Source of the DNA: Clostridia bacterium
GTDB taxonomy: Bacteria > Bacillota > Clostridia > Oscillospirales > CAG-382
Direction of reading: 5' to 3'
Length of the DNA: 64,000 bases
Assembly (NCBI GenBank): GCA_017537345.1
Contig: JAFYKY010000012.1
Coordinates: 134,665-198,664 of the forward strand
Part shown: piece by piece, positions 3,340 through 53,575 of the stretch
Layout: every line of letters begins with the position of its first letter
How positions within the stretch are numbered: position 1 is the first letter of the stretch
Translations under genes and position numbers: made by a program
Notes under the pieces: model-generated
Databases searched by the model: none
What the model was told of the DNA's origin: nothing
What the model saw: only the letters and a program-made list of their open reading frames with translations

Positions 3340-3442
3340 AATGATGAACCCACCCCAAAAACGCGTGGCGTTTTCGGGGAACCCCGGGAATGAGGAATGA
3401 TGAATGATGAATGTCGGTAGTTTTTTGCGTAACGCAAAAAAC
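3338..3442. repeat. modular repeat (inverted H2 hairpin + heptamer array + module-A hairpin)
   Basis: TTAATGATGAA terminus. CCCCAAAAACGC-gtg-GCGTTTTCGGGG (3353-3379) with CGGGGAACCCCG palindrome. Heptamers AATGAGG AATGATG AATGATG AATGTCG (3389-3416). GTTTTTTGCG-taa-CGCAAAAAAC (3420-3442). Confidence 0.85.
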
Positions 3443-3458
3443 AAATACAATTATTGGC

Positions 3459-3585
3459 GGGACGATAGGGATATCGTCCCCTACGATTATCGAATAGCCG
3501 TGGCTGTTCGCAGACCGTAGGGGACGATGTCCCCACCTGCACCCCACAAAACCTGCGGTTTTGCGGGGAACCCCGCCGTCGTCCC
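3459..3585. repeat. REPIN-like inverted REP doublet; right REP has an H2 module nested in its loop
   Basis: Left REP is GGGACGATA-ggga-TATCGTCCC followed by CTAC (3459-3484). 32-nt linker GATTATCGAATAGCCGTGGCTGTTCGCAGACC. Right REP is GTAG (3517-3520) followed by GGGACGA ... CGTCGTCCC (to 3585), with an inverted H2 at 3539-3574 inside. The same doublet and linker occur at 52205-52288. Confidence 0.85.
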
Positions 3586-3788: not shown

Positions 3789-4769
3789 TTATTCTGTCGA
3801 GCGAAAGCGCAAAAAATTGGGGCAGCTTAAATACCTTTCTCCCGTATCGGGTAAAAGCACTACGATGGTTTTTCCCTCGTTTTCCTGCTTTTTTGCCTCT
3901 CGTACGGCGGCGCAAAGGGCGGCGCCGGAGGAAATTCCCGCCAGTATTCCTTCTTTTTTTGCAAGCAGGCGGGCGTATTTAAAGGCTTCCTCCTCGGTTA
4001 CCGTTTCCACCGTATCGTAAACGGAGGTATCCAGCACATCGGGCACAAATCCCGCGCCGATCCCCTGCAAGCCGTGAGCGCCTTTTTTGCCTCCCGAAAG
4101 CACGGGGGAGCCTGCAGGCTCAACGGCGACTACCTTGGTTTTCGGGTTTTTCTCTTTTAAAAATCTTCCCGTGCCGGTAATGGTTCCGCCGGTGCCCACG
4201 CCGCACACAAAAATATCCACGTTTCCGTCGGTATCTTCATATATCTCTCTGCCCGTGGTATCAAAATGGGCTTTGGGGTTTGCGGGGTTGGTAAACTGCC
4301 CCGCAATAATACTGCCCTTTATCTCTTTCAAAAGCTCGTTTGCTTTTGCGATCGCGCCGTCCATCCCATCGTTTGCGGGGGTAAGCACAAGGGAGGCGCC
4401 GTAGGCGGAAATAAGCATTTTTCTTTCTTCCGACATATTTTCGGGCATAACGATAATGCATTTGTACCCCCTCACGGCGCAAAGCGCGGCAAGACCTATA
4501 CCCGTATTACCCGAGGTAGGCTCGATAATCACCGTGTTTTTATTGATGATACCTGCCTTTTCGCCTTCGTCCAGAATACTTTTCGCTACTCTGTCCTTGG
4601 CGCTTCCGCCGGGGTTAAAGGATTCAAGCTTTGCAATAACGCGGCAGTTGAGCGAAAGCTCTTTTTTTATGTTGTTAAGCTCCAGAAGGGGAGTGCCGCC
4701 TATGAGAGCGTCTGCTCTCTGATAAATTTTTTCCATATTATTCCTGAGCAAATCTGCTGTAATATTCAA
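3789..4769 (-). CDS. cysK: cysteine synthase A (O-acetylserine sulfhydrylase)
   Basis: 326 aa. GGTPLLELN, KLESFNPGGSAKDR, PTSGNTGIGLA. Alternative start ATG at 4736, 1 nt after the upstream stop, is plausible. Confidence 0.9.
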   Translation of the reverse strand: MNITADLLRNNMEKIYQRADALIGGTPLLELNNIKKELSLNCRVIAKLESFNPGGSAKDRVAKSILDEGEKAGIINKNTVIIEPTSGNTGIGLAALCAVRGYKCIIVMPENMSEERKMLISAYGASLVLTPANDGMDGAIAKANELLKEIKGSIIAGQFTNPANPKAHFDTTGREIYEDTDGNVDIFVCGVGTGGTITGTGRFLKEKNPKTKVVAVEPAGSPVLSGGKKGAHGLQGIGAGFVPDVLDTSVYDTVETVTEEEAFKYARLLAKKEGILAGISSGAALCAAVREAKKQENEGKTIVVLLPDTGERYLSCPNFLRFRSTE

Positions 4770-7047
4770 TATACTGCTTCATCTGGTGCATCTTGTATAC
4801 GCCCTTCCAATCGTCTTTGCCCCAAAGCGCCATGGGAGTCATATAATGGGGGATATCGAAAACGATAATTCCATCGGAAAGAGTGTACTGCAGTGAAAGG
4901 GATTTTTCCGTTTCTTCAAAGCGTTTGGAGGAATAGTTTATCTCAAACACCTCCGCATCGTGCCAGAAATCCGCGCCCGCTTTTTCTATTCCCTTTTTCC
5001 ACGCCTGACAGTATTTAAGCCAATCTCCGTAGACCTTATCGGAAACAACAAGGCTTTGCTCTCTGCCAAGGCAATCCTGCACCGCAACAATATCCACCAC
5101 CGGCTTTTCTCCCTCGGCGGCGGGCTTTAACAGATCGTAAAGCTTATCCGAAATCTTGTCAACACTGCCGGAACGCCATATAGCGGGGGCGATCATTATC
5201 AGAGCGTCCTCGTCCAGCTTACGTATCACCTTGGACTGACCTTCGTATACCTTGCGGGCGGCTTCCACACCGCCGCTGAAATTAAGCCAGTAATCGCAGG
5301 TTTCATCGGAAAGATAATATCCGCCGAAAGCGGGATGGTCCCCGTACATTTCGTCAATATCCTTAATAACCTTTTCGCCGTCCGCCACTATAGCATCGTA
5401 CTGCGCCTGATTTTTTGAGGGGGCGGTGAAATCCGCATCGTGAATAGTGCCGATAAACACCTTCATACCCAGCTTTTCAGCCGCGTCAAGCACCGCCTTG
5501 CACATATCCTCCGTGCCGTAGGTGGGGGTGTATGTATATCCGGCGGCGGTAATGTTTTTGCCGTTTATAAGGGTGGTCTTTGCGTTGTAATGGGTGGAAT
5601 ACTGAATAATCACCGTACTCATACCCAGATCCCGCATACCTTTAAGGGAAAGATACCAGCTGTACGCATCGTTCTGTGTGGAAATGTCGTTTCCTCCGTT
5701 GGTGGGAAGCTGGTAAAAACCGCCGTCCACTACGGGCAAAGCCACGGTCTTGTTAAAGGTCTGAATTTCGTTTACCTCGCCGTCACATTTAAAAGAAAGG
5801 GTAAATTCACCGGATTCCACGGGGGTTTCAAGCAAAATAAGGGTAGTGTGCAGGCCTGCGGCGGAATTTTTTATAACCTTTCCTGCGGGAGAAATATCCG
5901 TAATTTCTGCGGTGGAAAGTATGTTCAAAGCCGTTACCGCACCCTTGGCTTTTACGGTCAGCGCACCGTCAACCTTTACGCCCGCATTTACAATGCCGTC
6001 GGTAAGGGCTTTGTCCCCTGCGCTCTTTATGGTGTTCACATCACCTACGGGAAGGGCAAGGGGAGGAGTGTATTCTTTTCTTGCGACAGAAGTATTTGCG
6101 CCCCAGATCTCAATTTCATCGGTGGCGAAAATTCCGTCCGCATAAGTAAATACCTTTATATATCTCGCTTCCACCGTGGCGGGACGGGTGACGGTGAATC
6201 GGTTTTGCTTGTTCTTTGCTTCCACAAGGAAGGATTGACCGAAATCTTCCCAGCTTTCGCCGTCTTTGGAATAACGTACGGCTATCCGTTCGGGAATCAC
6301 CGTTTTTATATCACCGTAAAGGAACGCGGAAACTGATACCTCACAAACGTTTTTCGCTTCGCCGAGATCAAGTGTGATAATATTTCCCTTTTTGCCGTTG
6401 CGGGGATCGGTATCGTGGGCGGTCTTTGCGGCAACAACGCTGTCGTCCCCCGTAAAATACACGCCGTCCGTAAGCTTTAACCCGTCTTTATCGGAATAAT
6501 CTCTCATTCCCGTGCCTTCCCATACGTAGGATGCGCCTAAGGAAAGCAGGGTCTTTTTTGCATAAGGCAGGGCGGTAACCGTAACCGAATCAAGGGTAAC
6601 GCTCTTTTTTTCAAAAACTATATTAAACGCCTTGCAGTCTGTGTTAAAATTAAAGGTGTCGGTATCAAATTCGCCCAAAAACTTTGTGAAATTATATCCG
6701 TCGTCAGATGCAAATACCTTGTAAGAGCAGTCTGCTCCCTTTAATTCCACCTTGCCGTCGGGGGCGGGGAAGCCGATATCTATAAACAGGGAAACACCGT
6801 TTAAGGGCAGTTTTTCTGTGTGGGTGTTGTTATACCAATCGGTAAAGGTAAGCTCCTCGGGGGCGTTTTCGTCCAAAGCCAGAACGTACTTTCCCTCGCT
6901 TTCCGTCATCACCGTGCCGCTTTCGGGCCATACACGGATATTTTCCAAAGCATAAGGCTCCATAAGCGGGGGCGTGGTTTCACAGCTTGTCATAAGAATA
7001 CCTCCAAGTAGGGCAATTAAAAGAAAAATACAAACGCTTCTTTTCAT
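4738..7047 (-). CDS. lipoprotein with discoidin (F5/8 type C)-like domain and DUF4434-like glycoside-hydrolase-like C-terminal domain
   Basis: 769 aa. Signal plus lipobox-like LLGGILMTSC. Central segment ...LKLTDGVY...ARYIKVF...DEIEIWG resembles F5/8-C. C-terminal TIM-barrel-like region. GGAGG RBS. Confidence 0.6.
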   Translation of the reverse strand: MKRSVCIFLLIALLGGILMTSCETTPPLMEPYALENIRVWPESGTVMTESEGKYVLALDENAPEELTFTDWYNNTHTEKLPLNGVSLFIDIGFPAPDGKVELKGADCSYKVFASDDGYNFTKFLGEFDTDTFNFNTDCKAFNIVFEKKSVTLDSVTVTALPYAKKTLLSLGASYVWEGTGMRDYSDKDGLKLTDGVYFTGDDSVVAAKTAHDTDPRNGKKGNIITLDLGEAKNVCEVSVSAFLYGDIKTVIPERIAVRYSKDGESWEDFGQSFLVEAKNKQNRFTVTRPATVEARYIKVFTYADGIFATDEIEIWGANTSVARKEYTPPLALPVGDVNTIKSAGDKALTDGIVNAGVKVDGALTVKAKGAVTALNILSTAEITDISPAGKVIKNSAAGLHTTLILLETPVESGEFTLSFKCDGEVNEIQTFNKTVALPVVDGGFYQLPTNGGNDISTQNDAYSWYLSLKGMRDLGMSTVIIQYSTHYNAKTTLINGKNITAAGYTYTPTYGTEDMCKAVLDAAEKLGMKVFIGTIHDADFTAPSKNQAQYDAIVADGEKVIKDIDEMYGDHPAFGGYYLSDETCDYWLNFSGGVEAARKVYEGQSKVIRKLDEDALIMIAPAIWRSGSVDKISDKLYDLLKPAAEGEKPVVDIVAVQDCLGREQSLVVSDKVYGDWLKYCQAWKKGIEKAGADFWHDAEVFEINYSSKRFEETEKSLSLQYTLSDGIIVFDIPHYMTPMALWGKDDWKGVYKMHQMKQYIEYYSRFAQE

Positions 7048-7070
7048 TTTTTCATACCTCCGTTAAGTTG

Positions 7071-7099
7071 ATTTTAACACATACGGGCAAGCTTGTCAA
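7071..7099 (-). promoter_or_regulatory. sigma-70-type promoter for the lipoprotein gene
   Basis: Minus strand reads TTGACA (7094-7099), 17 nt, TGtTAAAAT (-10 at 7071-7076). Confidence 0.55.
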
Positions 7100-7227
7100 T
7101 CAAACAATGAATAAATGCACTTTCGTCTGCAGAGAAAATATATTAATATATGTTTAATATATGTTGCTTTTGCGAGAATATTTTTGCATTTGTTGAATAA
7201 AAAGTGAATAAAAACACAAAAAGCCCC

Positions 7228-7255
7228 TTGAATTTATGCAAAAATGTGCTATAAT
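7228..7255 (+). promoter_or_regulatory. strong extended -10 promoter driving the large ncRNA
   Basis: TTGAAT (7228-7233), 16 nt, TGcTATAAT (TG 7247-7248, -10 at 7250-7255). No ORF or RBS follows. Confidence 0.65.
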
Positions 7256-7261
7256 AAATGA

Positions 7262-7882
7262 GCGATGGCGCAGTATTCTAGTTAGCGCGGCGTTTTTGAA
7301 GGCGTGCCTAAAAATACGTCAAACGGCAAATCGATGAAGCTCCTGGTGTTTGCTTTGTACGCCCAGTTCAGGGTGGATGCTGGGAGAGTGGACTGTGGGC
7401 GCACCCCAACGGCATGGGGCGGCTACCCCACTTTCCTTTGAGGCTTTTTCTTCGTGGCGGACCTACACAAACAAAAAAAGGGGGCTACGGGATTAAGATT
7501 AAACCTATCACGCGGTACGACCATTACAGATGCTGTGGATAGATGTAGCCGGCTTTGAGTGGGTCATGGCGGATAACGTTCATGTCGGGGTGAGATTAGC
7601 TACCGAACCCCGAATAAATCGCGTTTGAAATCATGCCTGCAAAAGAAGATAAGAAAACGTTTTGCGCTATGGCGGAAAACGCCTAGACTGTTATCGTGGC
7701 AGATAAACACGTATGGGCACGGTGCGGATTACAGTGCGGACTCATAGGCAATCAAGTCGCGGAACCGGTAACGCTCCGCCTCGGTCTTTAATGGGGAACC
7801 CCTTCATCGGCGACGAGAAGGAGACCGCGGGGAAATCCTACTTGACCGTAAGCCGCAAGGTCTACGTACCGTGCCGCCATTA
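7262..7882 (+). ncRNA. large structured ncRNA, probable OLE (ornate, large, extremophilic) RNA
   Basis: About 620 nt directly after a strong promoter. The only ORF of 60 aa or more is 7713-7916 (67 aa, no RBS). Visibly more G+C-rich than the AT-rich 7100-7255 region. Helices: ATGGCG 7265-7270 / CGCCAT 7875-7880; GGCACGGT 7716-7723 / ACCGTGCC 7868-7875; CGGGGT 7586-7591 / ACCCCG 7607-7612; GCGGA 7759-7763 / TCCGC 7775-7779; CCTCGGTC 7779-7786 / GACCGCGG 7823-7830. Synteny with the oapA-like/dxs/tlyA/nadK/argR/recN cluster. Class not verifiable without a covariance-model search. Confidence 0.55.
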
Positions 7883-7883
7883 T

Positions 7884-7990
7884 TATTCACCCCACAAAAG
7901 GTTTTTTGGCGAGTAGGGGCGTTTCACGAAACGCCCGCAACAGACAAAACATATCACGAAAAAACGCTTTTGCGGGGACCCCGAAAATAT
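7884..7990 (+). repeat. composite element X: inverted H2 hairpin split by an insert carrying a REP variant
   Basis: H2 arms CCCCACAAAAGG (7890-7901) and GCTTTTGCGGGG (7966-7977). Inside is GTAG followed by GGGCGTTTC/GAAACGCCC (7913-7938). A ~90 percent identical copy lies in reverse orientation at 42020-42125. Confidence 0.85.
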
Positions 7991-8227
7991 CAAACAGACA
8001 GTGGGAGCGCGTTCATTCGGCGCAGAAGACACCCCACAAAACTTGCGTTTTGCGGGGACCCCGTGAACCAAAAACGCAAAAACACACTCAAATGTTTCGA
8101 AAACCGTAGGGGACGACGTCCTCGTCGTCCCGCACACCACAAAACATACGGTTTTGCAGGGAACCCCGAAAATATCAAACAGACAGTGGGAACGCATTTT
8201 AGGGGTGGGTTCCTCATTCCTCATTAA
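7991..8227. repeat. REP/H2 mosaic (BIME-like)
   Basis: REP GTAG GGGACGACG-tcct-CGTCGTCCC (8106-8133). Inverted H2 copies at 8032-8057 and 8134-8168. 28-nt direct repeat CCCCGAAAATATCAAACAGACAGTGGGA at 7979-8006 and 8164-8191. Terminal heptamers TTCCTCA TTCCTCA then TTAA (8210-8227). Confidence 0.85.
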
Positions 8228-8241
8228 AAACGGTGGTAAAT

Positions 8242-8706
8242 ATGGTAAAAAACATTTTAAAATATTCCCTGTTTGGATTGACGGCGTCTTTTGCTTTTGC
8301 GGCTTTTACGATCTATCTGCTTGAGCCGAGAGAAAAACTTATCTCGGAACTGCCTAGGTATTGGCAGGTCATCTGGTTGGTGTTGCTTAATATCGTGGGA
8401 ATCTTTTCTCATTTCGCCGCAAGATTTAGCATTCCCCTTGTTGCCCGCGTATCAAAAAAATACAAAAAAGCACCCGTTATATTTTTGGCGGTGTTTGTAG
8501 TTATCGTGTTTGTTCTTTCCGGCGGAAAATACGGCGCCAGACACGGAAGAGGACTGTTTTTTATAATGCACGAAACGGCGGGCATAACTTCGGTTGCCGC
8601 GCTTGATATTATTTTGTTTTTCTTCATAATGCTGATCTCATATTTCGTTATTTGTGTTGTTACGGAATTCAAAAAAACGGAAAAAACAAAAAATGACAAA
8701 CAATAA
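8242..8706 (+). CDS. small polytopic membrane protein (about 4 TM), function unknown
   Basis: ORF 8233-8706. ATG at 8242 is preferred (GGTGG 5 nt upstream). Hydrophobic helices throughout. The 3' end overlaps the RAYT start by 14 nt. Confidence 0.5.
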   Translation: MVKNILKYSLFGLTASFAFAAFTIYLLEPREKLISELPRYWQVIWLVLLNIVGIFSHFAARFSIPLVARVSKKYKKAPVIFLAVFVVIVFVLSGGKYGARHGRGLFFIMHETAGITSVAALDIILFFFIMLISYFVICVVTEFKKTEKTKNDKQ

Positions 8707-9370
8707 ACCACCCCTCCCCAAACGTAAAAACACCCGCTGGGACAAGCAGGACTACTCCCACCCCGGCGAATATATGATAACTGTCTGCACAAAGGATATG
8801 AAACAGATATTATCGAGAATAACCGCCGGTAACCCGCAAACCGTAGGGGACGATATCCCTATCGTCCCGCACCACGTAAACGCACAAACCGTAGGGGACG
8901 ACGTCCTCGTCGTTCCGCACCCCACAAAACCTGCGGTTTTGCAGGGAACCCCGACCGTCCCGCATATCGAACTCACATATTTCGGAAAAATTGCGGATAA
9001 ATATATAAACCAATTAAACGATTTCTACGATAACATCAACGTAATAAAATACGTTATAATGCCGAATCATATACATTTGCTGTTGCAGATACCGGACGGG
9101 ACGACGAGGACGTCGTCCCCTACGAAAACAACTGACGGAACTAAGTGCGAAATCACGCCGTCCCCTATGGGTGAGCGAACAGACGCACGACCCGTTGAAC
9201 ATTCGATAATATCGGATTTTATTTCAACTTTCAAACGTTTCGTTCACCGCGATATCGGCGAGCAGATTTTTCAGCGCTCATATCACGATCACGTTATACG
9301 GGACGAAAACGATATGATCGGGGCTATAAATTATATAGAAAATAATCCACACAGATGGATAGAAAATTAA
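8693..9370 (+). CDS. REP-associated tyrosine transposase (RAYT; IS200/IS605 TnpA-like Y1 HUH enzyme) with in-frame REP insertions
   Basis: Start at ATG 8693 (MTNNKPPLPKRKNTRWDKQDYSHPGEYMITVCTKD). HUH motif VIMPNHIHLLLQ. C-terminal QRSYHDHVIRDENDMIGAINYIENNPHRW. Segments VGDDIPIVP, VGDDVLVVPHPTKPAVLQGTP and GTTRTSSPT are translated repeat hairpins. Confidence 0.8.
   Translation: MTNNKPPLPKRKNTRWDKQDYSHPGEYMITVCTKDMKQILSRITAGNPQTVGDDIPIVPHHVNAQTVGDDVLVVPHPTKPAVLQGTPTVPHIELTYFGKIADKYINQLNDFYDNINVIKYVIMPNHIHLLLQIPDGTTRTSSPTKTTDGTKCEITPSPMGERTDARPVEHSIISDFISTFKRFVHRDIGEQIFQRSYHDHVIRDENDMIGAINYIENNPHRWIEN
8843..8963 (+). repeat. two tandem REPs plus inverted H2 module inside the RAYT coding frame
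   Basis: GTAG GGGACGATA-tccc-TATCGTCCC (8843-8870). GTAG GGGACGACG-tcct-CGTCGTTCC (8891-8918). CACCCCACAAAACCTGCGGTTTTGCAGGGAACCCCG (8918-8953). Partial stem ACCGTCCCGC (8954-8963). Confidence 0.85.
9096..9124 (-). repeat. inverted REP inside the RAYT coding frame
   Basis: GGGACGACG-agga-CGTCGTCCC followed by CTAC (9098-9123). 27 nt identical to the reverse complement of the intergenic REP at 8106-8133. Confidence 0.85.
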
Positions 9371-9372
9371 AT

Positions 9373-9520
9373 TGTGAAGAGAGAAAAGAGAAGAGTGGAA
9401 AGAAACGGAAGATTTTTGCGTAATACGCAAAAATCAACCATAATTCCCGGGGTTCCCCGAAAACGCTGTGCGTTTTTGGGGTGGGTCATTCATCATTCCT
9501 CATTCCTCGTTCCTCATTTA
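9373..9520 (+). repeat. modular repeat (purine heptamers + module A + H2 + pyrimidine heptamers)
   Basis: GTGAAGA GAGAAAA GAGAAGA GTGGAAA GAAACGG (9374-9408). GATTTTTGCG-taata-CGCAAAAATC then AACCAT. CCCCGAAAACGC-tgt-GCGTTTTTGGGG. TCATTCA TCATTCC TCATTCC TCGTTCC TCATTTA (9486-9520). Near-identical copy at 15653-15795. Confidence 0.85.
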
Positions 9521-9569
9521 TTACAGCCATTACATATCAAAAACATTTATTTAAATTTTAGGATATAAA

Positions 9570-10136
9570 ATGAAAAACATAAAAGAAAAATCCAAACGCC
9601 GTGCGCGGCGGATATGGATAACATTTGCATTTATATTCAGCTTTATAATGACCGCCCTTCTTTCGCTGCTTTCCGGCGAAGCGTTGGAGGATCTTCCCGT
9701 TTGGGCAGCGCTGGCGGTGCTGCTTATCTTTATTTTGCTGGGTATCGTGTTCGATATGATCGGTCTGGCGGTCACCACGGCGGATATTTCCGCCTTCAAC
9801 GCTATGGCGGCGAAAAAAGACCCCGTGGGCAAGCGGGCTGTATGGCTTATCGCCAATGCGGAAAAGGTATCCTCCTTTTGCAACGATATAGTGGGCGATA
9901 TCTGCGGCGTAGTTTCGGGCGCTTCGGCGGCGACCATTGCGGTGGTGCTGTTTTCGGGACTGAGCTATGAGCTTGCGTTCTGGCTCACCCTTTCTCTTAC
10001 CGCTCTGGTTTCCTCCGTCACTGTGGGAGGAAAGGCGCTGGGCAAGAAGGCGGGTATCGATAAAAACAGGGAAATAACCCTTTTATGCGCAAAAATATTA
10101 AGTGTTTTTTCGAAAAAACAAGGAAAGAAAAAGTAA
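9570..10136 (+). CDS. oapA: 4-TM membrane protein, probable OLE-associated protein A
   Basis: 188 aa (about 20 kDa). Basic N-terminus KEKSKRRARR, four hydrophobic helices, Lys-rich tail. Sits immediately upstream of dxs-tlyA-nadK-argR-recN, the position reported for oapA. Assignment is by synteny and architecture only. Confidence 0.5.
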   Translation: MKNIKEKSKRRARRIWITFAFIFSFIMTALLSLLSGEALEDLPVWAALAVLLIFILLGIVFDMIGLAVTTADISAFNAMAAKKDPVGKRAVWLIANAEKVSSFCNDIVGDICGVVSGASAATIAVVLFSGLSYELAFWLTLSLTALVSSVTVGGKALGKKAGIDKNREITLLCAKILSVFSKKQGKKK

Positions 10137-10142
10137 AAAAGT

Positions 10143-11975
10143 ATGATACTTGAAACGGTTTCCACACCGGCAGACGTAAAAAAACTGCCTCCCGAACAAT
10201 TAAAGATACTGGCGGCGGAAATTCGTTCCGAGCTTATAAACGTAACCGCCTCAAACGGCGGGCATCTTGCCTCCAATCTGGGGGTGGTAGAGCTTACCAT
10301 CGCTATTCACCGTGTGTTCGATTGCCCCGAGGACAGAATTATTTTCGACGTAAGCCACCAGAGCTACGTTCACAAAATGCTTACGGGCAGGCGTCAGTTT
10401 ATGCACACCCTCCGCAAATACGGAGGGCTTTCCGGCTTCCAGAAGCGTTCGGAAAGCAAAGCAGACCCTTTCGGTTCGGGTCATTCCTCCACATCTGTTT
10501 CCGCGGCGGCAGGCTTTGCGGCGGCGGATAAAATTGCGGGCAGAAAGAATATTACCGTTGCGGTCATCGGCGACGGTGCGCTTACGGGCGGTATGGCGTA
10601 CGAGGCTCTTAACAACTGCGCCTCCTACGATAATATGGTTATTATCCTTAACGATAACGGGATGTCCATTTCCCCCAACGTAGGCGCCACCTCAAAGCTT
10701 CTTTCCCGCATAAGAGTAAGTAAAAAATATTTCGGATTCAAGCGGCTTGTTTACAAAGCCTTTATGGCTGTGCCGGGTATCGGCAAGGGCTTGGTGAATA
10801 TGGCTGTGGGCTTTAAAAACTGGGCAAAGCGGCATCTTGTGCACGAAAACCTTTTCGAGCAGTTGGGAATGCACTACTTCGGCCCTCTTGACGGACACGA
10901 TATCTCCGCTATGGAGGACGTGTTGCGTGAAGCCAAGGCGGACGGCAAATGCTCGGTTGTCCACGTTTGCACCAAAAAGGGCAACGGCTACGCCCCTTCG
11001 GAGAAAAACCCCGCCTTTTTCCACGGCGTTTCCGGCTTTGACAGAGAGACCGGCGCGGTTAAAGAGGGAGAGGGCAAGAGCTATTCTTCCGTTTTCGGCG
11101 AAACTCTCACCCGCCTTGCGTTTGCGGATAAGCGTATATGCGCAGTTACCGCCGCAATGGAATACGGCACGGGACTTGCCCCCTTTGCAAAAGCCTTTCC
11201 CGATAGATTTTTCGACGTGGGCATAGCGGAAGAACACGCAATGACCTTTTCCGCAGGTCTGGCGGCAGGGGGAATGAAGCCGGTCTTCGCGGTGTATTCC
11301 ACCTTTTCCCAAAGAGCATACGACCAGCTTATACACGACGTGGCTTTGCAAAAGCTTCCCGTGGTCATCGCTATGGACAGAGCGGGTATCGTCGGCTCCG
11401 ACGGACCTACCCACCACGGTATGTTCGATATGTCGTATCTCAACGCAATACCCAATATTACGGTCTGGTCGCCCTATACCGAAACCGAACTCAAGGTGTG
11501 CTTAAAGCGGGCGCTGGATCTTGATACTCCCTCCGTGGTGCGCTACCCCAGAGGAAACGTGCCCGAAGGACAGTCTATGTCCGATATAGATTACGCCGTA
11601 ACCGATTTCGGTCAGAGCGAATTCATATATACCGTGCTTATAACCACGGGCAGTGAAACGGCAGAGGCTTACCGCGCTTGCGAAATAGCCCACGCCAACG
11701 GAACCAACGTGCGGCTTATCCGTCTTATACGGGTAAAGCCCCTGCCCGATATATCCCATCTCATTAAAAACGCCCGTGTTATCGTAACGGCAGAGGAGGG
11801 TATGGTAAAGGGCGGTATCGGCGAAGGTATCGCCGCTATGTGCGCAAGCAAGCAGCTCCGCGCCCGCGTTACCGTTTGCGGCGCAACCGATTTTTTGCCC
11901 CACGGCGATGGCGGCACTCTGCGCGCGATGGCGGGAATAGACTCTACCTCCCTTGCGCGTAAATTATGCGAATAG
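10143..11975 (+). CDS. dxs: 1-deoxy-D-xylulose-5-phosphate synthase
   Basis: 610 aa. GGHLASNLGVVELTIAIHRVF, DVSHQSYVHKMLTGR, GDGALTGGMAYEALN, DVGIAEEHA. Confidence 0.95.
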   Translation: MILETVSTPADVKKLPPEQLKILAAEIRSELINVTASNGGHLASNLGVVELTIAIHRVFDCPEDRIIFDVSHQSYVHKMLTGRRQFMHTLRKYGGLSGFQKRSESKADPFGSGHSSTSVSAAAGFAAADKIAGRKNITVAVIGDGALTGGMAYEALNNCASYDNMVIILNDNGMSISPNVGATSKLLSRIRVSKKYFGFKRLVYKAFMAVPGIGKGLVNMAVGFKNWAKRHLVHENLFEQLGMHYFGPLDGHDISAMEDVLREAKADGKCSVVHVCTKKGNGYAPSEKNPAFFHGVSGFDRETGAVKEGEGKSYSSVFGETLTRLAFADKRICAVTAAMEYGTGLAPFAKAFPDRFFDVGIAEEHAMTFSAGLAAGGMKPVFAVYSTFSQRAYDQLIHDVALQKLPVVIAMDRAGIVGSDGPTHHGMFDMSYLNAIPNITVWSPYTETELKVCLKRALDLDTPSVVRYPRGNVPEGQSMSDIDYAVTDFGQSEFIYTVLITTGSETAEAYRACEIAHANGTNVRLIRLIRVKPLPDISHLIKNARVIVTAEEGMVKGGIGEGIAAMCASKQLRARVTVCGATDFLPHGDGGTLRAMAGIDSTSLARKLCE

Positions 11976-12694
11976 ACGTGTTTTTGGCGGAAAAGGGCTT
12001 GGCGCCCAGCCGCAGTAAAGCAAAAGAATATATAGATTCCGGCAAGGTTTTTTTAAACGGCGCCCCCGTTAAAAAAGCGGGACTGGAGGTTACGGGGACA
12101 GAGGATATCCGTGTTATGGATGCGGATAAATTCGTTTCCCGCGCAGGCAGAAAATTGGAAGCCGCTTTGGATATTTTCGGTATCGACGTTACGGATCTAA
12201 GCGCACTTGACCTTGGTGCGTCCACCGGCGGATTTACCGATTGCCTCTTGCAGAGAGGGGCAAAAAGGGTTATCGCCCTTGACGTAGGCAGGGATCAGCT
12301 TGATAAAAGCTTAAGAGAGGATGAGCGTGTTTTCGTAATGGAAAACACCAACGCCCGTGATATTTTTCCCGAAGACCTGCCTTTTTTACCGGATATTATT
12401 ACCACAGACCTTTCCTTTATTTCCCAGACTCTTGTTTACCCCGCAGTTGCAAGGGTGCTTGAAAAAGGCTACTTTATATCCCTTGTAAAGCCCCAGTTCG
12501 AAGCGGGGAGAGAGAATATCGGCAAGGGGGGAATAGTTAAGGATAAAGACGGTAAGATAAAAAAAGCGGTGCTTGAAAAAATAGAAAAAGCCGCTTCCGA
12601 AAACGGACTCCTGCTTTTGAAAACCGCCCCTTCACCCATTGCGGGAGGGGACGGAAACACAGAATATCTGGCACTTTTTGAAAGGAGTGTTTAA
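11966..12694 (+). CDS. tlyA: TlyA-family rRNA 2'-O-methyltransferase (hemolysin A-like)
   Basis: 242 aa. N-terminal S4 domain MRIDVFLAEKGLAPSRSKAKEYI. SAM motif LDLGASTGGFTDCLLQRGA. Overlaps the dxs stop by 10 nt. Confidence 0.9.
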   Translation: MRIDVFLAEKGLAPSRSKAKEYIDSGKVFLNGAPVKKAGLEVTGTEDIRVMDADKFVSRAGRKLEAALDIFGIDVTDLSALDLGASTGGFTDCLLQRGAKRVIALDVGRDQLDKSLREDERVFVMENTNARDIFPEDLPFLPDIITTDLSFISQTLVYPAVARVLEKGYFISLVKPQFEAGRENIGKGGIVKDKDGKIKKAVLEKIEKAASENGLLLLKTAPSPIAGGDGNTEYLALFERSV

Positions 12695-13483
12695 ATGAAA
12701 CGCGTTCAGCTCCTTGTAAATACGTTAAAGCCGGAAGCTCAGTACACCGCTATGAAGGTTACCGATGCCTTGACGGAATACGGTATGACAGTTACCGATA
12801 AAAATCCCGAAGCCATTATATCTATCGGCGGGGACGGTACGGTGCTTCGCGCCGCATCCATTGCCGCAAGGGCGGATATCCCCATCGTGGGTATAAACTG
12901 CGGCACACTGGGATATCTGAACGATATCGAATCGGACGAGACCGAACTTTTACAAAAATTAAAAACAGACGATTATACAGTGGATAAGCTTATGCTTCTT
13001 GCCGTCACCCTTTACAGAAAGGACGGCAGGCAGGAGGAATTTTTGGTGCTTAACGAGGTGCTGTTCTCCCGCGGGGCATCCCCCCGTATAGCGGATATCC
13101 ACCTTTATTCCGATGGTGTCCACGTTTCCGATTATTCGGCAGACGGGCTCATCTTTTCCACCCCTACGGGAAGCACGGCGTATTCCCTTTCCGCAGGAGG
13201 ACCTATTATACATCCCAGTCTTGAATCCATTACCGTTACTCCCGTTTGCCCCCATCCCACCGCATCTACCCGTGCAATAGTTTTCCCTGCGGACAGTATG
13301 CTTATGGTGGCGGCAGAGGTAAGAGGGGGCGCAAGCGCCTGCATTACCGTGGATTCCGCGCCTCCCGTGGAGTTTTGCCCCGGTGATTATGCGGTTATCC
13401 GCAAGAGCGAGCGCCACACAAAAATAGCCCGTATCAAAAACCGTAATTTCTATTCGGTTGTCCATAAAAAATTTAACGTTTGA
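12695..13483 (+). CDS. nadK: NAD kinase
   Basis: 262 aa. GGDGTVLRAA, NCGTLGYL, STPTGSTAYSLSAGGPI. Confidence 0.9.
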   Translation: MKRVQLLVNTLKPEAQYTAMKVTDALTEYGMTVTDKNPEAIISIGGDGTVLRAASIAARADIPIVGINCGTLGYLNDIESDETELLQKLKTDDYTVDKLMLLAVTLYRKDGRQEEFLVLNEVLFSRGASPRIADIHLYSDGVHVSDYSADGLIFSTPTGSTAYSLSAGGPIIHPSLESITVTPVCPHPTASTRAIVFPADSMLMVAAEVRGGASACITVDSAPPVEFCPGDYAVIRKSERHTKIARIKNRNFYSVVHKKFNV

Positions 13484-13499
13484 AAGGAAGCGGAGTAAA

Positions 13500-13958
13500 A
13501 TGAAAATAAAAAGACAAACAAAAATAATGGAGCTTATAAAAACCCGGGACGTAGATACCCAGGAAGAGCTTTTGATGCTGCTTCGCGCCGCAGGATTTGA
13601 ATGTACCCAAGCTACCGTATCCAGAGATATACGTGAGCTTAAAATAGTAAAGGCTTCCAACGGAAAGGGCGGCTACCGCTACGTTTCCGCAACCCTGCCC
13701 ACCTCCGAGCATATCGCAACCAAGTTTGCAAAGATACTTGCAGACACGGTAAAGAGCGTGGATCAGGCAATGAATCTGGTAGTGCTCCGCACCTATATGG
13801 CAATGGCATCCGCCGCCTGCATCACTATCGACGCTATGAATTTTGAAGGTATCCTGGGCTCTATCGCAGGGGACGATACCATAGTTTTAATTACCAAAAA
13901 CGAGGAAGATGCTCACCGTATCTGCGTAAAGTTAAAGGAACAGATCGGCGCGGCGTAA
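13500..13958 (+). CDS. argR: arginine repressor
   Basis: ATG 13500 preferred (GGAAGCGGAG upstream). MKIKRQTKIMELIKTRDVDTQEELLMLLRAAGFECTQATVSRDIRELK. C-terminal GSIAGDDTI. Confidence 0.9.
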   Translation: MKIKRQTKIMELIKTRDVDTQEELLMLLRAAGFECTQATVSRDIRELKIVKASNGKGGYRYVSATLPTSEHIATKFAKILADTVKSVDQAMNLVVLRTYMAMASAACITIDAMNFEGILGSIAGDDTIVLITKNEEDAHRICVKLKEQIGAA

Positions 13959-13967
13959 AAAACAGAT

Positions 13968-15632
13968 ATGCTTTTTTCATTACATATCCGCTGTGTTGCA
14001 CTTATTAAAGAATTGGATATAGACCTTTCCGAGGGGCTTACCGTCTTTACGGGTGAAACGGGCGCAGGTAAAAGTATTATCATAGATTCAATAGCCCTGC
14101 TTTGCGGCGCACGGAGCGATAAAAGTATTATCCGCACCGGTGAAGACAGCGCCGAGGTGGAGGGTGTTTTCGGTATGCTTTCTTCCGATGTGCTAAAGGC
14201 GTTGGAAACCGAAGAGGTGTACCCCGATGAAGAGGGAAATCTGTTCCTTACCCGCCGCATTACCGCAGACGGCAGAAGCGTTTCCCGCATAAACGGCAGA
14301 GTTGTGCCCGTGGGCAAGCTCCGTGCAGTTTCCGCATATCTTCTGGATATTCACGGTCAGCAGGATACCACCCGTCTGGCAGACGAAAGCATTCATCCCG
14401 CCCTTTTGGATCTGTATGCGGATAACGGCAGGGAAAAGGAAGAATATTCGGCTGCCTACCGCGCCTACACCGCCTTGCGCAAGGAAAAGCAAGAGCTGGA
14501 AGACAGTATGAACAATACCGAGGAAAGAAAGGATTTTCTTTCCTACCGTCTTAAAGAGCTTCGCCGCGCAAAGATAAAAGCGGGTGAGCAGGAAGAGCTT
14601 ACCGCAAAACGAAACCTGCTTTTAAACCGCGAAAAGATAGTGGTTTCCGCAAGAAACGCTTATTACGCCCTGTATGAAAAAGACGAATCTGCTGCTTCTT
14701 TGATTTCCGAAGCGGAGAGCGCTCTGGACACCCTTTCGGATTACGTGCCCGAAGCAAAGGATTTAAAAAACCGTCTTGAAAGCGTGCGGTTGGAAATAGA
14801 AGATATTGCGGATACCGTTACTGCCTATACCGACGATCCGGACGGCGACCCCCAGTCCGCGCTGGATAATATAGAATCTCGCCTTTCTCTCATTTCCTCT
14901 CTGTGCCGTAAGTACCGTACCGACGAGGAGGGGCTTATAACTCTCCTTACAGAAACGGAAAACGAGCTTAATTCCATAGAAAACAGCGTGTTCCGCAAGG
15001 AAGATATAGAAAAAGAGCTTGCGGATGCGGAAAAACAAGCCTCCGCCCTTGGCGAAAAGCTGTATTCCACCCGCGCCCGCGCCGCAAAGGAAATGGAAAA
15101 GCAGATAAAGGATATCCTTTACGGCTTGGATATGCCGGGAGTCACCTTTGTGACCGAGTTTGAAAAAACTCCACTTTCCCCTTGGGGTACGGAAAAAGCA
15201 AGATTTTTAATATCTGCCAATGCAGGCGAAGAGCCCCGCCCCGTTGCCAAAATAGCATCGGGCGGTGAATGTGCCCGTATAATGCTGGCGGTAAAGAGCG
15301 TGCTGGCAAACGCAGAAAATATAAGCACTATGATATTCGACGAGGTGGACACGGGTATCTCGGGAGCTACCAGCTCCCGTATCGGTATGCGGCTCAAAGC
15401 GCTGGCGGGAACGGAAAAGCAGGTTATATGCGTTACCCATTCCGCACAGATAGCCGCTTTGGCAAAAAACCACCTGCTCATTTCAAAAAGCGCATCCTTC
15501 GGCAGGACCGAAACCCACGTACGCCCCCTTTCCGGCGAAGCCCGCGTGAAAGAGGTTGCACGTATAATGGGCGGTATCGATCCGGGCGAGGAAATAATAA
15601 ACGCTGCAAGAACAATGATAAAAAACCCGTGA
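13968..15632 (+). CDS. recN: DNA repair protein RecN
   Basis: 554 aa. LTVFTGETGAGKSIIIDS Walker A, coiled-coil middle, ASGGECARIMLA signature, MIFDEVDTGISG. Confidence 0.95.
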   Translation: MLFSLHIRCVALIKELDIDLSEGLTVFTGETGAGKSIIIDSIALLCGARSDKSIIRTGEDSAEVEGVFGMLSSDVLKALETEEVYPDEEGNLFLTRRITADGRSVSRINGRVVPVGKLRAVSAYLLDIHGQQDTTRLADESIHPALLDLYADNGREKEEYSAAYRAYTALRKEKQELEDSMNNTEERKDFLSYRLKELRRAKIKAGEQEELTAKRNLLLNREKIVVSARNAYYALYEKDESAASLISEAESALDTLSDYVPEAKDLKNRLESVRLEIEDIADTVTAYTDDPDGDPQSALDNIESRLSLISSLCRKYRTDEEGLITLLTETENELNSIENSVFRKEDIEKELADAEKQASALGEKLYSTRARAAKEMEKQIKDILYGLDMPGVTFVTEFEKTPLSPWGTEKARFLISANAGEEPRPVAKIASGGECARIMLAVKSVLANAENISTMIFDEVDTGISGATSSRIGMRLKALAGTEKQVICVTHSAQIAALAKNHLLISKSASFGRTETHVRPLSGEARVKEVARIMGGIDPGEEIINAARTMIKNP

Positions 15633-15652: not shown

Positions 15653-15795
15653 GTGAAGAGAGAAAAGAGAAGAGTGAAAAGAAACGGAAGATTTTTGCGT
15701 ATTACGCAAAAATCAACCATCCCGGGGTTCCCCGCAAAACCGCAGGTTTTGTGGGGTGGGTCATTCATCATTCATCATTCCTCATTCCTCATTAA
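15653..15795 (+). repeat. modular repeat (same composite as 9373-9520)
   Basis: GTGAAGA GAGAAAA GAGAAGA GTGAAAA GAAACGG. GATTTTTGCG-tatta-CGCAAAAATC then AACCAT. CCCCGCAAAACC-gca-GGTTTTGTGGGG. TCATTCA x2, TCATTCC x2. Ends in TTAA (15792-15795). Confidence 0.85.
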
Positions 15796-21215: not shown

Positions 21216-21352
21216 GAACGAGGAACTGGGAACTAGGAACTTCGGAAGATTTTTGCCCCAAAGGCAAAAATCAACCATTCCGGGGTTCCCCGCAAAACCG
21301 CAGGTTTTGTGGGGTGGTTAGTTCATAGTTCATCGTTTATCGTTCATCGTTC
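21210..21352 (+). repeat. modular repeat (full composite) between the mgsA-like gene and hisS
   Basis: AACTAGG AACGAGG AACTGGG AACTAGG AACTTCG (21210-21244). TTCGGAAGATTTTTGCC-ccaaa-GGCAAAAATCAACCATT. CCGGGGTTCCCCGCAAAACC-gca-GGTTTTGTGGGGTGG (21280-21317). AGTTCAT/CGTTCAT-type heptamers to 21352. Confidence 0.85.
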
Positions 21353-35761: not shown

Positions 35762-35764
35762 TTG

Positions 35765-35802
35765 TTCGGGGTCCCCGAGAAGCCGCAAGGCTTCTTGGGG
35801 TG
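35765..35802 (+). repeat. H2-type hairpin module (variant)
   Basis: CGGGGTCCCCG palindrome plus CCCCGAGAAGCC-gcaa-GGCTTCTTGGGG (35773-35800), with the family-typical G:T at stem position 5. Confidence 0.75.
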
Positions 35803-41924: not shown

Positions 41925-42125
41925 TTAACGATGAACGATGAACGATAAACGATGAACTTCGGAAGCTTTTTGCACGGCTGTGCAAAAAGCAACCATTAGT
42001 TCATAGTTTATAGTTCATAGTTTTTTTCGGGGTCCCCGAGAAAGCGTTTTTTCGTGATATGTTTCGTCTATTGCGGGCGATTCGTGAATCGCCCCTACTC
42101 ATCAAAAAACCTTTCTTGGGGTGAA
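41925..42125. repeat. compound repeat inside the ymcA-mutS intergenic region
   Basis: TTAACGATG AACGATG AACGATA AACGATG AACTTCG. TTCGGAAGCTTTTTGCAC-ggct-GTGCAAAAAGCAACCATT (41958-41997). AGTTCAT AGTTTAT AGTTCAT. Then element X in reverse (42020-42125) with REP variant GGGCGATTC/GAATCGCCC followed by CTAC (42075-42098). Confidence 0.85.
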
Positions 42126-51933: not shown

Positions 51934-51960
51934 GTAGGGCGGGTGGCTTGCCCCCGCCGC
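51934..51960 (+). repeat. REP variant (GTAG + GC hairpin)
   Basis: GTAG GGCGGG-tggcttgc-CCCGCC (reads tGTAGGGCGGGTGGCTTGCCCCCGCCGC). Confidence 0.6.
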
Positions 51961-51982
51961 TTTAATAACAGAATAAGGTAAA

Positions 51983-52020
51983 AATTCGGTAGAAGTAAAC
52001 CTCTACCGAATTCCTTTTTA
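51983..52020 (+). terminator. rho-independent terminator candidate downstream of the oxidoreductase gene
   Basis: AATTCGGTAGA (51983-51993) / TCTACCGAATT (52002-52012), an 11-bp perfect stem followed by a T-rich tract. Confidence 0.55.
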
Positions 52021-52076
52021 TTTTGCGTTTTTTAAAGGCTTTCGCTTCGCTGGCTGTAGGTTACTACAGCTCCCGA

Positions 52077-52110
52077 CGGGGTCCCCAAAAATGCACGCAT
52101 TTTTGGGGTG
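52077..52110. repeat. H2-type hairpin module (perfect-stem variant)
   Basis: CGGGGTCCCC then CCCCAAAAATGC-ac-GCATTTTTGGGG (52083-52108). Confidence 0.75.
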
Positions 52111-52204
52111 CCATATCCCGCTCGCGAAAGACCTTTTCTACAGCGTTTTACCTTCGCTCTCGCTCGGTCATCGAATAGACGATAGTGTAGTGCGAACAAA
52201 TTAC

Positions 52205-52288
52205 GGGACGATGAGGACATCGTCCCCTACGATTATCGAATAGCCGTGGCTGTTTGCAGACCGTAGGGGACGTCGTCCCCGACGTCCC
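52205..52288. repeat. REPIN-like inverted REP doublet
   Basis: GGGACGATG-agga-CATCGTCCC followed by CTAC (52205-52230). The same 32-nt linker as 3485-3516 with 1 substitution. GTAG GGGACGTCG-tccc-CGACGTCCC (52263-52288). Confidence 0.85.
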
Positions 52289-52572: not shown

Positions 52573-52773
52573 TTATTCCTCAACAAACTCGGCGATATCC
52601 TCCAAACCGCAATTCAGAGCTTTGCACAGTTTGTCCAGCGTTTTGGTTTCGATATTCTCGTTGGCGCGGAGTCGGCGTACGGTTTTATTGTCTATACCGC
52701 ATTCTTCCCTTAATACGTAGGTAGATACGCCCTTTTTCTCCATAGTTTTCCACAATCTGTCAAATATAATCAT
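52573..52773 (-). CDS. XRE-family helix-turn-helix protein (small)
   Basis: 66 aa. VSTYVLREECGIDNKTVRRLRANENIETKTLDKLCKAL is a typical Cro/CI HTH. Confidence 0.75.
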   Translation of the reverse strand: MIIFDRLWKTMEKKGVSTYVLREECGIDNKTVRRLRANENIETKTLDKLCKALNCGLEDIAEFVEE

Positions 52774-53084: not shown

Positions 53085-53131
53085 ACTTCAAAATATTGAC
53101 CGCTATACTGGTCTGTTTGGAGAAATCGGCA

Positions 53132-53575
53132 ATGAAAACTTGTACTTTTTTCGGGCACAGCGATGCGCCGAGCGATATTTTAGATAAGCTGTATCTCATT
53201 TTGGAGGATCTGATCGTAAATAAAGACGTAGGTTGCTTTTTGGTCGGCAACCAAGGGGCGTTTGACAGAACGGTTTTACGCACTCTTCGGCTGCTTAAGG
53301 TCGATTATCCTCATATTTTATATTCAGTGGTAATTCCTTACCTTACGTATAAAGAAAATGAATATTATTCGGAAGACGAAACTGTTTTCCCCGGTATATT
53401 GGATACCTGCCCCGAAAAATTTTCCATAGACAGACGTAACAAATGGATGATAAAAGAATCCGATTACGTGGTCTGCTACATAAAATGCGATTTTTCCCGT
53501 TCCGCCCAATATATGGAGATGGCAAAACGCAGAAAAAAGACTGTTATAAACCTGGCACCTTCCGCATTTGATTAA
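53132..53575 (+). CDS. SLOG-fold protein (DUF1273 / YpsA-like)
   Basis: ATG 53132 preferred (GGAG RBS). MKTCTFFGHSD..., VGNQGAFD..., and the RRNKWMIKESDYVVCY pattern are typical of DUF1273. Confidence 0.65.
   Translation: MKTCTFFGHSDAPSDILDKLYLILEDLIVNKDVGCFLVGNQGAFDRTVLRTLRLLKVDYPHILYSVVIPYLTYKENEYYSEDETVFPGILDTCPEKFSIDRRNKWMIKESDYVVCYIKCDFSRSAQYMEMAKRRKKTVINLAPSAFD

Follow-up and report, generated by a model that had tools for sequence, protein, structure and literature searches.

Evidence for a full-length OLE RNA set apart from oapA by a REP/RAYT module in an uncultured Clostridia bacterium

The ORF-free interval described here is very probably an OLE RNA of the canonical, full-length kind, and nothing in the analysis speaks against this identity. 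OLE, a ~600-nt membrane-associated bacterial non-coding RNA, is the RNA component of a membrane-bound ribonucleoprotein (RNP) complex in anaerobic Bacillota. The interval lies in a window of 64,000 nucleotides, the whole stretch of DNA that was analysed, and the features of the locus are collected in Table 1. The only unusual feature of the OLE locus is a two-gene REP/RAYT module between the RNA and oapA. The host is an uncultured anaerobic Clostridia or Eubacteriales bacterium with relatives largely from animal guts; the near relatives of the locus are all Clostridia or Eubacteriales MAGs, several of which come from animal guts.

Table 1. Features of the OLE locus, in window coordinates
Feature	Position (nt)	Strand	Basis or remark
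Extended -10 promoter, sigma-70-type, TTGAAT-16-TGcTATAAT	7228-7255	+	10/12 plus TG
OLE RNA (RF01071), full-length	7249-7896	+	cmscan; structured core ~7265-7880
Terminal helix, 5' arm, ATGGC	7265-7269	+	pairs with 7876-7880
A-rich L4 loop (CCTAAAAAT; CCUAAAAAU as listed among the RNA elements)	7307-7315	+	near-invariant in 43 homologs
P9 tip UAGCUA, self-complementary; corresponds to the L9.3 kissing-loop dimer bridge B3	7597-7602	+	homolog comparison
Long-range helix of the 3' domain, 5' arm (GGCACGGTGCG)	7716-7726	+	Rfam structure
Long-range helix, 3' arm (CGTACCGTGCC)	7865-7875	+	Rfam structure
Terminal helix, 3' arm, GCCAT	7876-7880	+	pairs with 7265-7269
REP-like palindrome cluster, units CACCCCACAAAA..TTTTGCGGGGACCCCG and GTAGGGGACGACGTCCTCGTCGTCCC	7884-8232	+	repeat families
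TM154, 154-aa orphan membrane protein, four hydrophobic helices	8242-8706	+	hydropathy
RAYT-like gene (REP-associated tyrosine transposase, HUH/Y1)	8693-9370	+	NCBIfam, Pfam and PDB matches
More palindromes and REP units, with CATTCCTC repeats, 3' of the RAYT-like gene and 5' of oapA	9411-9520	+	
oapA, 188 aa, N-terminal KRRARR cluster, DxxxD at D106-D110	9570-10136	+	motif, hydropathy, Pfam
dxs	10143-11975	+	Pfam
tlyA-like FtsJ/S4 methyltransferase	11966-12694	+	Pfam
nadK	12695-13483	+	Pfam
argR	~13500-13958	+	Pfam
recN	13968-15632	+	Pfam

The entire 64-kb window was searched by cmscan against Rfam 15 (4227 families), and the one match obtained was to OLE, on the plus strand. It scores 385.2 bits, where the gathering score is 50, has an E value of 1.2e-109, and covers model positions 1–616 of 616. 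The match supports the OLE RNA that a sequence-only reading of this DNA had proposed for the interval. Other large ornate RNAs, namely ROOL, GOLLD, the raiA motif and HEARO, are likewise large, highly structured and ORF-free, but unlike the OLE model their models score nothing on the interval at E ≤ 1. None of the four gave a gathering-score hit in the 64-kb window, and a permissive scan of nt 7150–9600 against Rfam (E ≤ 1) returned no family besides OLE. Since OLE alone is found even at this threshold, these four RNAs are excluded. The same reading had kept an unclassified large non-coding RNA as its fallback. This is refuted by the full-model OLE match and by the OapA-type protein encoded downstream, which carries the DxxxD motif and has homologs adjacent to OLE in 48 genomes.

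All helices of the model are aligned without large deletions, including the central region taken to hold P7–P9. Therefore, the window copy is of the full-length class, which has P7, P8 and a long P9. It is neither variant 1 nor variant 2, the shortened forms known from TANB77 and RF39 organisms (Fernando & Breaker 2024; PMC11332333). Some non-canonical pairs occur in the Rfam alignment near several stem tips in the 5′ two-thirds of the RNA. The OLE family has been catalogued across GTDB, with 2,822 hits in Bacillota (PMC11332333), and as a canonical member of this family the locus counts as already known.

The stretch folds with a minimum free energy of -225.9 kcal/mol (z -3.0), lower than all 20 of 20 dinucleotide shuffles, and the predicted structure pairs the 5′ end with the 3′ end. 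In agreement with the statement that no credible ORF is present, nt 7256–7900 hold only mechanical ORFs of 40–67 aa. These are what could be cited for a coding function, in which the interval would specify one or more small proteins, for example from the 67-aa ORF at nt 7713–7916, instead of an RNA product. However, no RBS was seen in the earlier inspection, the substitutions are compensatory base-pair changes and loop indels rather than codon-like changes, and an RNA covariance model matches the region at E 1e-109. The probability of a coding function is thus negligible. The G+C content rises from 0.30 at nt 7000–7300 to 0.45–0.55 within the RNA, as had been noticed, a contrast that holds against the AT-rich intergenic leader only, the flanking genes also being at ~0.5.

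For comparison, loci were anchored on homologs of the 188-aa protein, one genome per species, which gave 59 loci. OLE was located by nhmmer in 52 of them, and 43 full-length copies were aligned. Covariation was counted for two helices, the terminal helix and the long-range helix of the 3′ domain, and the remaining helices were accepted from the Rfam alignment. The pairing of GGCACGGT (nt 7716–7723) with ACCGTGCC (nt 7868–7875), picked out in the sequence-only reading, is part of the 11-bp Rfam helix 7716–7726/7865–7875. All 11 pairs of this long-range helix show double changes among the 43 homologs, and 95.1% of the cells are paired. The terminal helix is unpaired and unannotated in the Rfam model; compensatory changes occur in four of its five pairs, with 90.7% of the cells paired in the same 43 homologs.

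The closing helix had been proposed as ATGGCG/CGCCAT. The ATGGC/GCCAT portion is real and covaries, whereas the sixth pair, G7270–C7875, used C7875 twice and was dropped. In the Rfam structure the partner of C7875 is G7716, and the two positions covary. Because C7875 belongs to the long-range helix, the terminal helix comprises 5 bp and not 6. When the two helices are pooled, 93.7% of the cells are standard pairs, compared with 34–50% when the 3′ partners are slid by 1–3 columns, and changes on both sides are found in 15 of the 16 pairs. There are 199 double-change cells versus 58 ± 6 in shuffles, and none of 500 shuffles reaches the observed score. This strong covariation demonstrates that both helices are real. 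Published OLE models, in the description given in PMC12265935, have a P1 built from the 5′ and 3′ ends that lies in a poorly resolved "domain 2". We infer that the terminal helix corresponds to P1 as described there.

In cryo-EM structures, OLE forms homodimers through A-A pairs in L4, contacts among L5, L6 and L7, and a kissing loop, L9.3 (PMC12286853, PMC12265935). The sequence elements for this homodimerisation, that is the A-rich L4, the L5/L6 loops and a self-complementary P9 tip, are kept in the window copy. The A-A dimer bridge B1 of the cryo-EM structures forms at the L4 loop (PMC12286853, PMC12265935). The dimer elements CCUAAAAAU, ACGCCCAGU and GGCAUG are conserved across the homologs, and in the homolog alignment the GCCCA and GGCAU loops are conserved in the window copy. 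The P9 tip is palindromic in nearly all homologs though its letters vary: most have GGCC, and AGCU, CAGCUG, GAGCUC, GGUACC and GGCGCC also occur. Self-complementarity that persists through sequence change is what a homodimeric kissing loop requires.

A promoter scan finds TTGAAT-16-TATAAT with the TG extension (10/12), and so confirms the extended −10 promoter previously assigned to nt 7228–7255. The closest relative that lacks the insert, L001, has the same TTGAAT-16-TG-TATAAT promoter letter for letter. Most of the 43 homologs have a TATAAT-like box 7–10 nt 5′ of the 5′ arm of the terminal helix; within the ~16 nt retained upstream, a −10 box with a 5/6 match is found in 31 of the 43. Because L001 shares the promoter and the position of the −10 box is conserved in the homologs, the OLE transcript is predicted to start probably at about nt 7262–7264, just before the terminal helix. 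No plus-strand intrinsic terminator was detected 3′ of OLE in the window or in L001. This absence fits the Halalkalibacterium halodurans cluster, for which polycistronic transcription is reported (PMC12265935).

The 188-aa protein that heads the downstream cluster had been described as having four transmembrane segments. Its hydropathy profile bears this out, with overlapping hydrophobic segments consistent with, and read as, four helices, and there is a basic cluster, KSKRRARR. Its DxxxD motif is D106-IVG-D110 and is kept in 59 of the 59 homologs. DxxxD is distinctive for OapA and is absent from true CNNM domains (PMC11332333). Against Pfam CNNM (PF01595) the protein scores 21.2 bits, below the cutoff of 28.4, and such a sub-threshold score is the reported behaviour of OapA (PMC11332333). 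Homologs of the protein are encoded directly 3′ of an OLE RNA in 48 other genomes. The window protein thus shares with known OapA, which is distantly related to the CNNM domain of MpfA/CorB, a length of ~190 aa, four hydrophobic helices, the N-terminal basic cluster, the DxxxD motif and the sub-threshold CNNM score, and by its sequence it is OapA. MpfA itself anticorrelates with OLE and is expected to be missing from this genome.

The genes dxs, tlyA, nadK, argR and recN, named beforehand as the rest of the cluster, are all confirmed by Pfam. The order from dxs to recN is common to the window, L001 and L060–L069. No candidate for oapB or for oapC, a member of the L7Ae family, emerged when the small ORFs of the 64-kb window were searched by protein family: they have no match to L7Ae or another RNA-binding family, and most look non-coding.

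The window locus is likewise similar to known OLE loci in that it belongs to an anaerobic member of the Bacillota and has the oapA-dxs-tlyA-nadK-argR-recN cluster. Besides the conserved nucleotides, its RNA has the P13 region, the palindromic P9 tip, the A-rich L4 and the GCCCA and GGCAU loops in common with the OLE RNAs of H. halodurans, Clostridium acetobutylicum and C. botulinum. At the P9 tip, UAGCUA stands in place of the common GGCC, and unlike the OLE RNAs studied so far, the window copy is preceded by a strong promoter of its own right at the 5′ helix. Its upstream neighbour is a divergently oriented DUF4434 gene, unlike the isoprenoid and exonuclease genes that we take to lie upstream of ole in H. 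halodurans.

The main difference from known loci concerns oapA, which is the third gene downstream of OLE on the same strand and, unlike known oapA genes, does not lie next to ole in the window or its clade. In the window oapA starts 1,690 nt past the OLE 3′ helix, versus a median of 62 nt (about 6–561 nt) in 48 relatives. The sequence-only reading did not remark on this 1.69 kb, with two genes and REP repeats, between OLE and the cluster. Compared with L001, window nt 7164–7882 align at 92% and nt 9581–15607 at 77%, and ~1.63 kb of extra DNA lies between them. Fragments of the ancestral spacer (ATCAAACAGCCATTAGGAGCGCGT) are recognisable on either side of the insert. L001 nt 17–231 also match the window, at about nt 51948–52208, and this match coincides with REP-like units at nt 52077–52288. 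Because of this overlap it was taken as repeat similarity and set aside as evidence of upstream synteny.

The insert begins with a cluster of REP-like palindromes that starts ~4 nt past the OLE 3′ helix and is itself strongly structured (-108.8 kcal/mol, z -3.9). Its hairpins include those at nt 7916–7937 and nt 8105–8132. The same units recur in the window at ~10 further sites between genes, well in excess of the shuffle expectation, and the ole-oapA spacer of L001 is without them.

The first gene of the insert, TM154, has no family in Pfam or NCBIfam, and an exhaustive HMMER search of 1.8 billion proteins gave 7 representatives of its family. Its homologs are 54–96% identical, its dN/dS is 0.25–0.31, and its AlphaFold model is of low confidence (pLDDT 61). 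TM154 was considered as a paralog of OapA and rejected, there being no detectable sequence similarity (BLASTP E = 4.2). A distant homolog of TM154 sits between recF and gyrB, and OLE and RAYT are absent nearby, which weakens the idea that TM154 is intrinsically linked to OLE.

The second gene overlaps the stop of TM154 by 14 nt. Its protein matches NCBIfam REP_Tyr_transpos with 53.8 bits (E 1.8e-14), below the equivalog cutoff of 80, has a weak match to Pfam Y1_Tnp, and matches TnpA_REP (PDB 4er8) with E 3e-4. REP palindromes are translated in frame within the ORF, and these REP-derived inserts interrupt the NCBIfam match. The HUH motif (NHIHLL) and AINYIENNP, the region of the catalytic Tyr, are conserved in the orthologs, and dN/dS is 0.29–0.34. 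The gene thus shares the HUH motif and the C-terminal Tyr region with REP/RAYT systems such as E. coli TnpA_REP, and likewise lies between clusters of REP-like palindromes, which also occur scattered through the intergenic regions of the genome. Unlike those systems, it falls below the NCBIfam cutoff, carries in-frame REP palindromes of variable copy number, and appears to be translationally coupled to an orphan 4-TM gene.

The order OLE–TM154–RAYT-like–oapA–dxs is also found in L064, L065, L066, L067 and L069. The upstream contexts in L064–L069 vary, being an NTP-transferase gene, jag/yidC/rnpA or DUF4434. A recent one-off insertion is rejected, the TM154 and RAYT-like pair being shared by L064–L067 and L069 with different upstream contexts. 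An assembly artefact was rejected as well: the same locus is present in nine independent contigs encoding identical OapA, and therefore the module is not artefactual. TM154 is only 54–84% identical in L064–L069, where OapA looks more than 90% identical by inspection. Both genes of the module are under purifying selection, with dN/dS of 0.25–0.34 versus 0.07–0.10 for OapA. Among the 59 OapA-anchored loci of other species, none has a TM154 or RAYT-like gene. The module, made up of REP hairpins, the orphan 4-TM gene and the RAYT-like gene, all co-oriented between ole and oapA, is thus confined to a few close relatives that form a narrow clade.

As a rule, RAYT genes occur as single copies, are inherited vertically and keep a stable position with REPs on either side. 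Most likely, the module is a resident, domesticated and vertically inherited REP/RAYT locus that is unrelated to the function of OLE. The two genes might instead be new, functionally integrated OLE components of this clade rather than a passenger REP/RAYT locus. At least four related genomes, which differ in upstream context, have them at the same place between ole and oapA and in the same orientation, both are under purifying selection, and TM154 is, like OapA, a four-helix membrane protein. However, TM154 has no detectable similarity to OapA, its distant homolog is found without OLE or RAYT, 0 of the 59 other OLE/oapA loci carry either gene, and in L001 the ole-oapA pair is intact. The usual biology of RAYT genes alone accounts for the stable position, and the integration of the two genes into the OLE complex is unlikely. 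We assign a similarly low probability to the module being part of OLE biology in this clade, in which the REP hairpins would define and protect the OLE 3′ end, or the 4-TM protein would be a lineage-specific membrane partner of OLE and OapA.

The sequence of the RNA itself is tightly conserved in the clade. OLE is 97.3–97.6% identical between the window and L064, L067 and L069, while the synonymous sites of oapA differ by ~44% (dS ~0.65–0.69). That the RNA is near-identical despite such divergence indicates strong purifying selection on it. In L001 the OLE core is 93.7% identical to that of the window.

This constraint bears on whether the window copy is a decaying relic, uncoupled once the REP/RAYT module broke the linkage between ole and oapA. 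A gap of 1.69 kb, unique among the loci compared, and the non-canonical pairs at some stem tips would fit decay. Yet OLE differs by less than 3% between species whose oapA genes show the synonymous divergence given above, it matches the full model at 385 bits, its promoter is intact, and OapA evolves at a dN/dS of 0.07–0.10, so that decay is hardly credible.

Instead of acting in trans as part of an RNP, the RNA could be mainly a cis-acting 5′ leader that controls the oapA-dxs-...-recN operon as a giant riboswitch-like or processing element. All the downstream genes share its strand, a plus-strand terminator is found after OLE neither in the window nor in L001, the oapA start is just 6–560 nt past the RNA in most relatives, and a polycistronic transcript of the H. 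halodurans cluster has been reported (PMC12265935). A leader that acts on the translation or attenuation of oapA, however, would not tolerate 1.7 kb and two unrelated genes before oapA, and the RNA is 97% identical in the clade in spite of them. The dimerisation elements are conserved, and OLE has been shown to be an abundant, membrane-localised RNA to which OapA, OapB and OapC bind (PMC12265935). A role mainly as a leader is therefore very improbable.

The locus would work as follows if it is the canonical OLE RNA. Transcription would start from the extended −10 promoter of the RNA at about nt 7262, and the RNA is predicted to fold into the conserved multi-helix OLE architecture, closed by the 5-bp terminal helix. 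By analogy with the literature on H. halodurans and Clostridium, a dimer of OapA would bind the RNA and anchor OLE at or in the membrane, and the OLE particle may help the cell to cope with alcohols, cold, excess Mg2+ and poor carbon sources. Plus-strand transcription would still run as a single unit from ole through TM154, RAYT, oapA and dxs to recN, since no intrinsic terminator can be detected on that strand within the gap. Alternatively, oapA could be driven by an unrecognised promoter inside the module.

OLE is of interest as a class of large, possibly membrane-spanning RNA. The window copy adds no new kind of object to it and is of modest value. The broken ole-oapA adjacency and the in-frame REP units of the RAYT-like gene are minor curiosities, and the locus is a tidy Clostridia example of a REP/RAYT system with REP units in frame within the RAYT gene. 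Covariation of the terminal helix and of the palindromic P9 tip in newly compared gut Clostridia sequences supports the published structural models. The locus also reveals that ole and oapA, almost universally adjacent, can come to lie 1.7 kb apart with the RNA still under very strong constraint, a point in favour of OLE acting as an RNA in its own right rather than as a leader of oapA.

The RAYT-like gene between ole and oapA, which encodes a protein resembling REP-associated tyrosine transposases (nt 8693–9370), contains REP-like palindromes that are translated in frame, for example TVGDDVLVVPHPTKPAVLQGTPTVPH. The copy number of these palindromes varies among otherwise near-identical RAYT-like orthologs. 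The orthologs of 249 and 234 residues, from two related loci with the same gene order (L064 nt 5452–6201 against L065 nt 5347–6051), differ by one 15-residue unit, and those of 196–198 residues carry only one palindrome, which is not the one found in the longer proteins. The HUH and Tyr motifs of the gene are intact, and its dN/dS is about 0.3.

TM154, the 154-aa four-helix membrane protein encoded just upstream (nt 8242–8706), has very few relatives: its orphan family counts 7 representatives in a set of 1.8 billion proteins. One distant relative carries the homolog in its replication-origin region, flanked by recF and gyrB (L071 nt 5001–5474). On L070, a short contig, the TM154 gene once more forms a pair with a Y1 transposase-like gene.

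REP-like units of one family, made up of TTTTGCGGGGACCCCG-type and GGGACGACGTCCTCGTCGTCCC-type palindromes, are also scattered through the window between rough gene calls. The TTTTGCGGGGACCCCG-type palindrome has 16 matches in the window against about 1 expected by chance, and the GGGACGACGTCCTCGTCGTCCC-type has 5 against about 0. Another REP cluster is adjoined by a small HTH gene and a YpsA/SLOG-like ORF, which may be what is left of a mobile or defence element.

The product of the gene that diverges from OLE is probably a secreted enzyme of the carbohydrate-binding or glycoside hydrolase-like type. The context upstream of OLE varies among the closest relatives, being an NTP-transferase gene in L064 and L069 and jag/yidC/rnpA in L065.

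Features in and around the ole-oapA region and the dispersed REP-like units
Feature	Position (nt)	Strand	Remarks
Dispersed REP-like units	3371–3574, 15724–15739, 21282–21297, 35762–35782, 42023–42043, 52077–52288, 53612–53627		
Gene divergent from OLE	4738–7047	(-)	769 aa; hydrophobic N-terminus, DUF4434 domain, F5/8 type C (discoidin) domain
Spacer fragments	7988–8013, 8173–8198 (REP cluster); 9525–9534 (near oapA)		Compared with L001 nt 1151–1180
In-frame REP-like palindromes	8842–8869, 8890–8953, 9097–9124		Within RAYT-like ORF
Cro/C1-type HTH gene	52573–52773	(-)	PF13443, E 1e-16
YpsA/SLOG-like ORF	53096–53575	(+)	Weak match

Pieces of the ancestral ole-oapA spacer, as represented by the closest relative without an insert (L001), are present twice inside the REP cluster directly 3′ of the OLE RNA, in the form ATCAAACAG(C/A)CA(T/G)T(A/G)GGAGCGCGT, and ACAGCCATTA recurs just upstream of oapA. 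The presence of these fragments at all three places suggests that REP insertions repeatedly duplicated or split the ole-oapA spacer.
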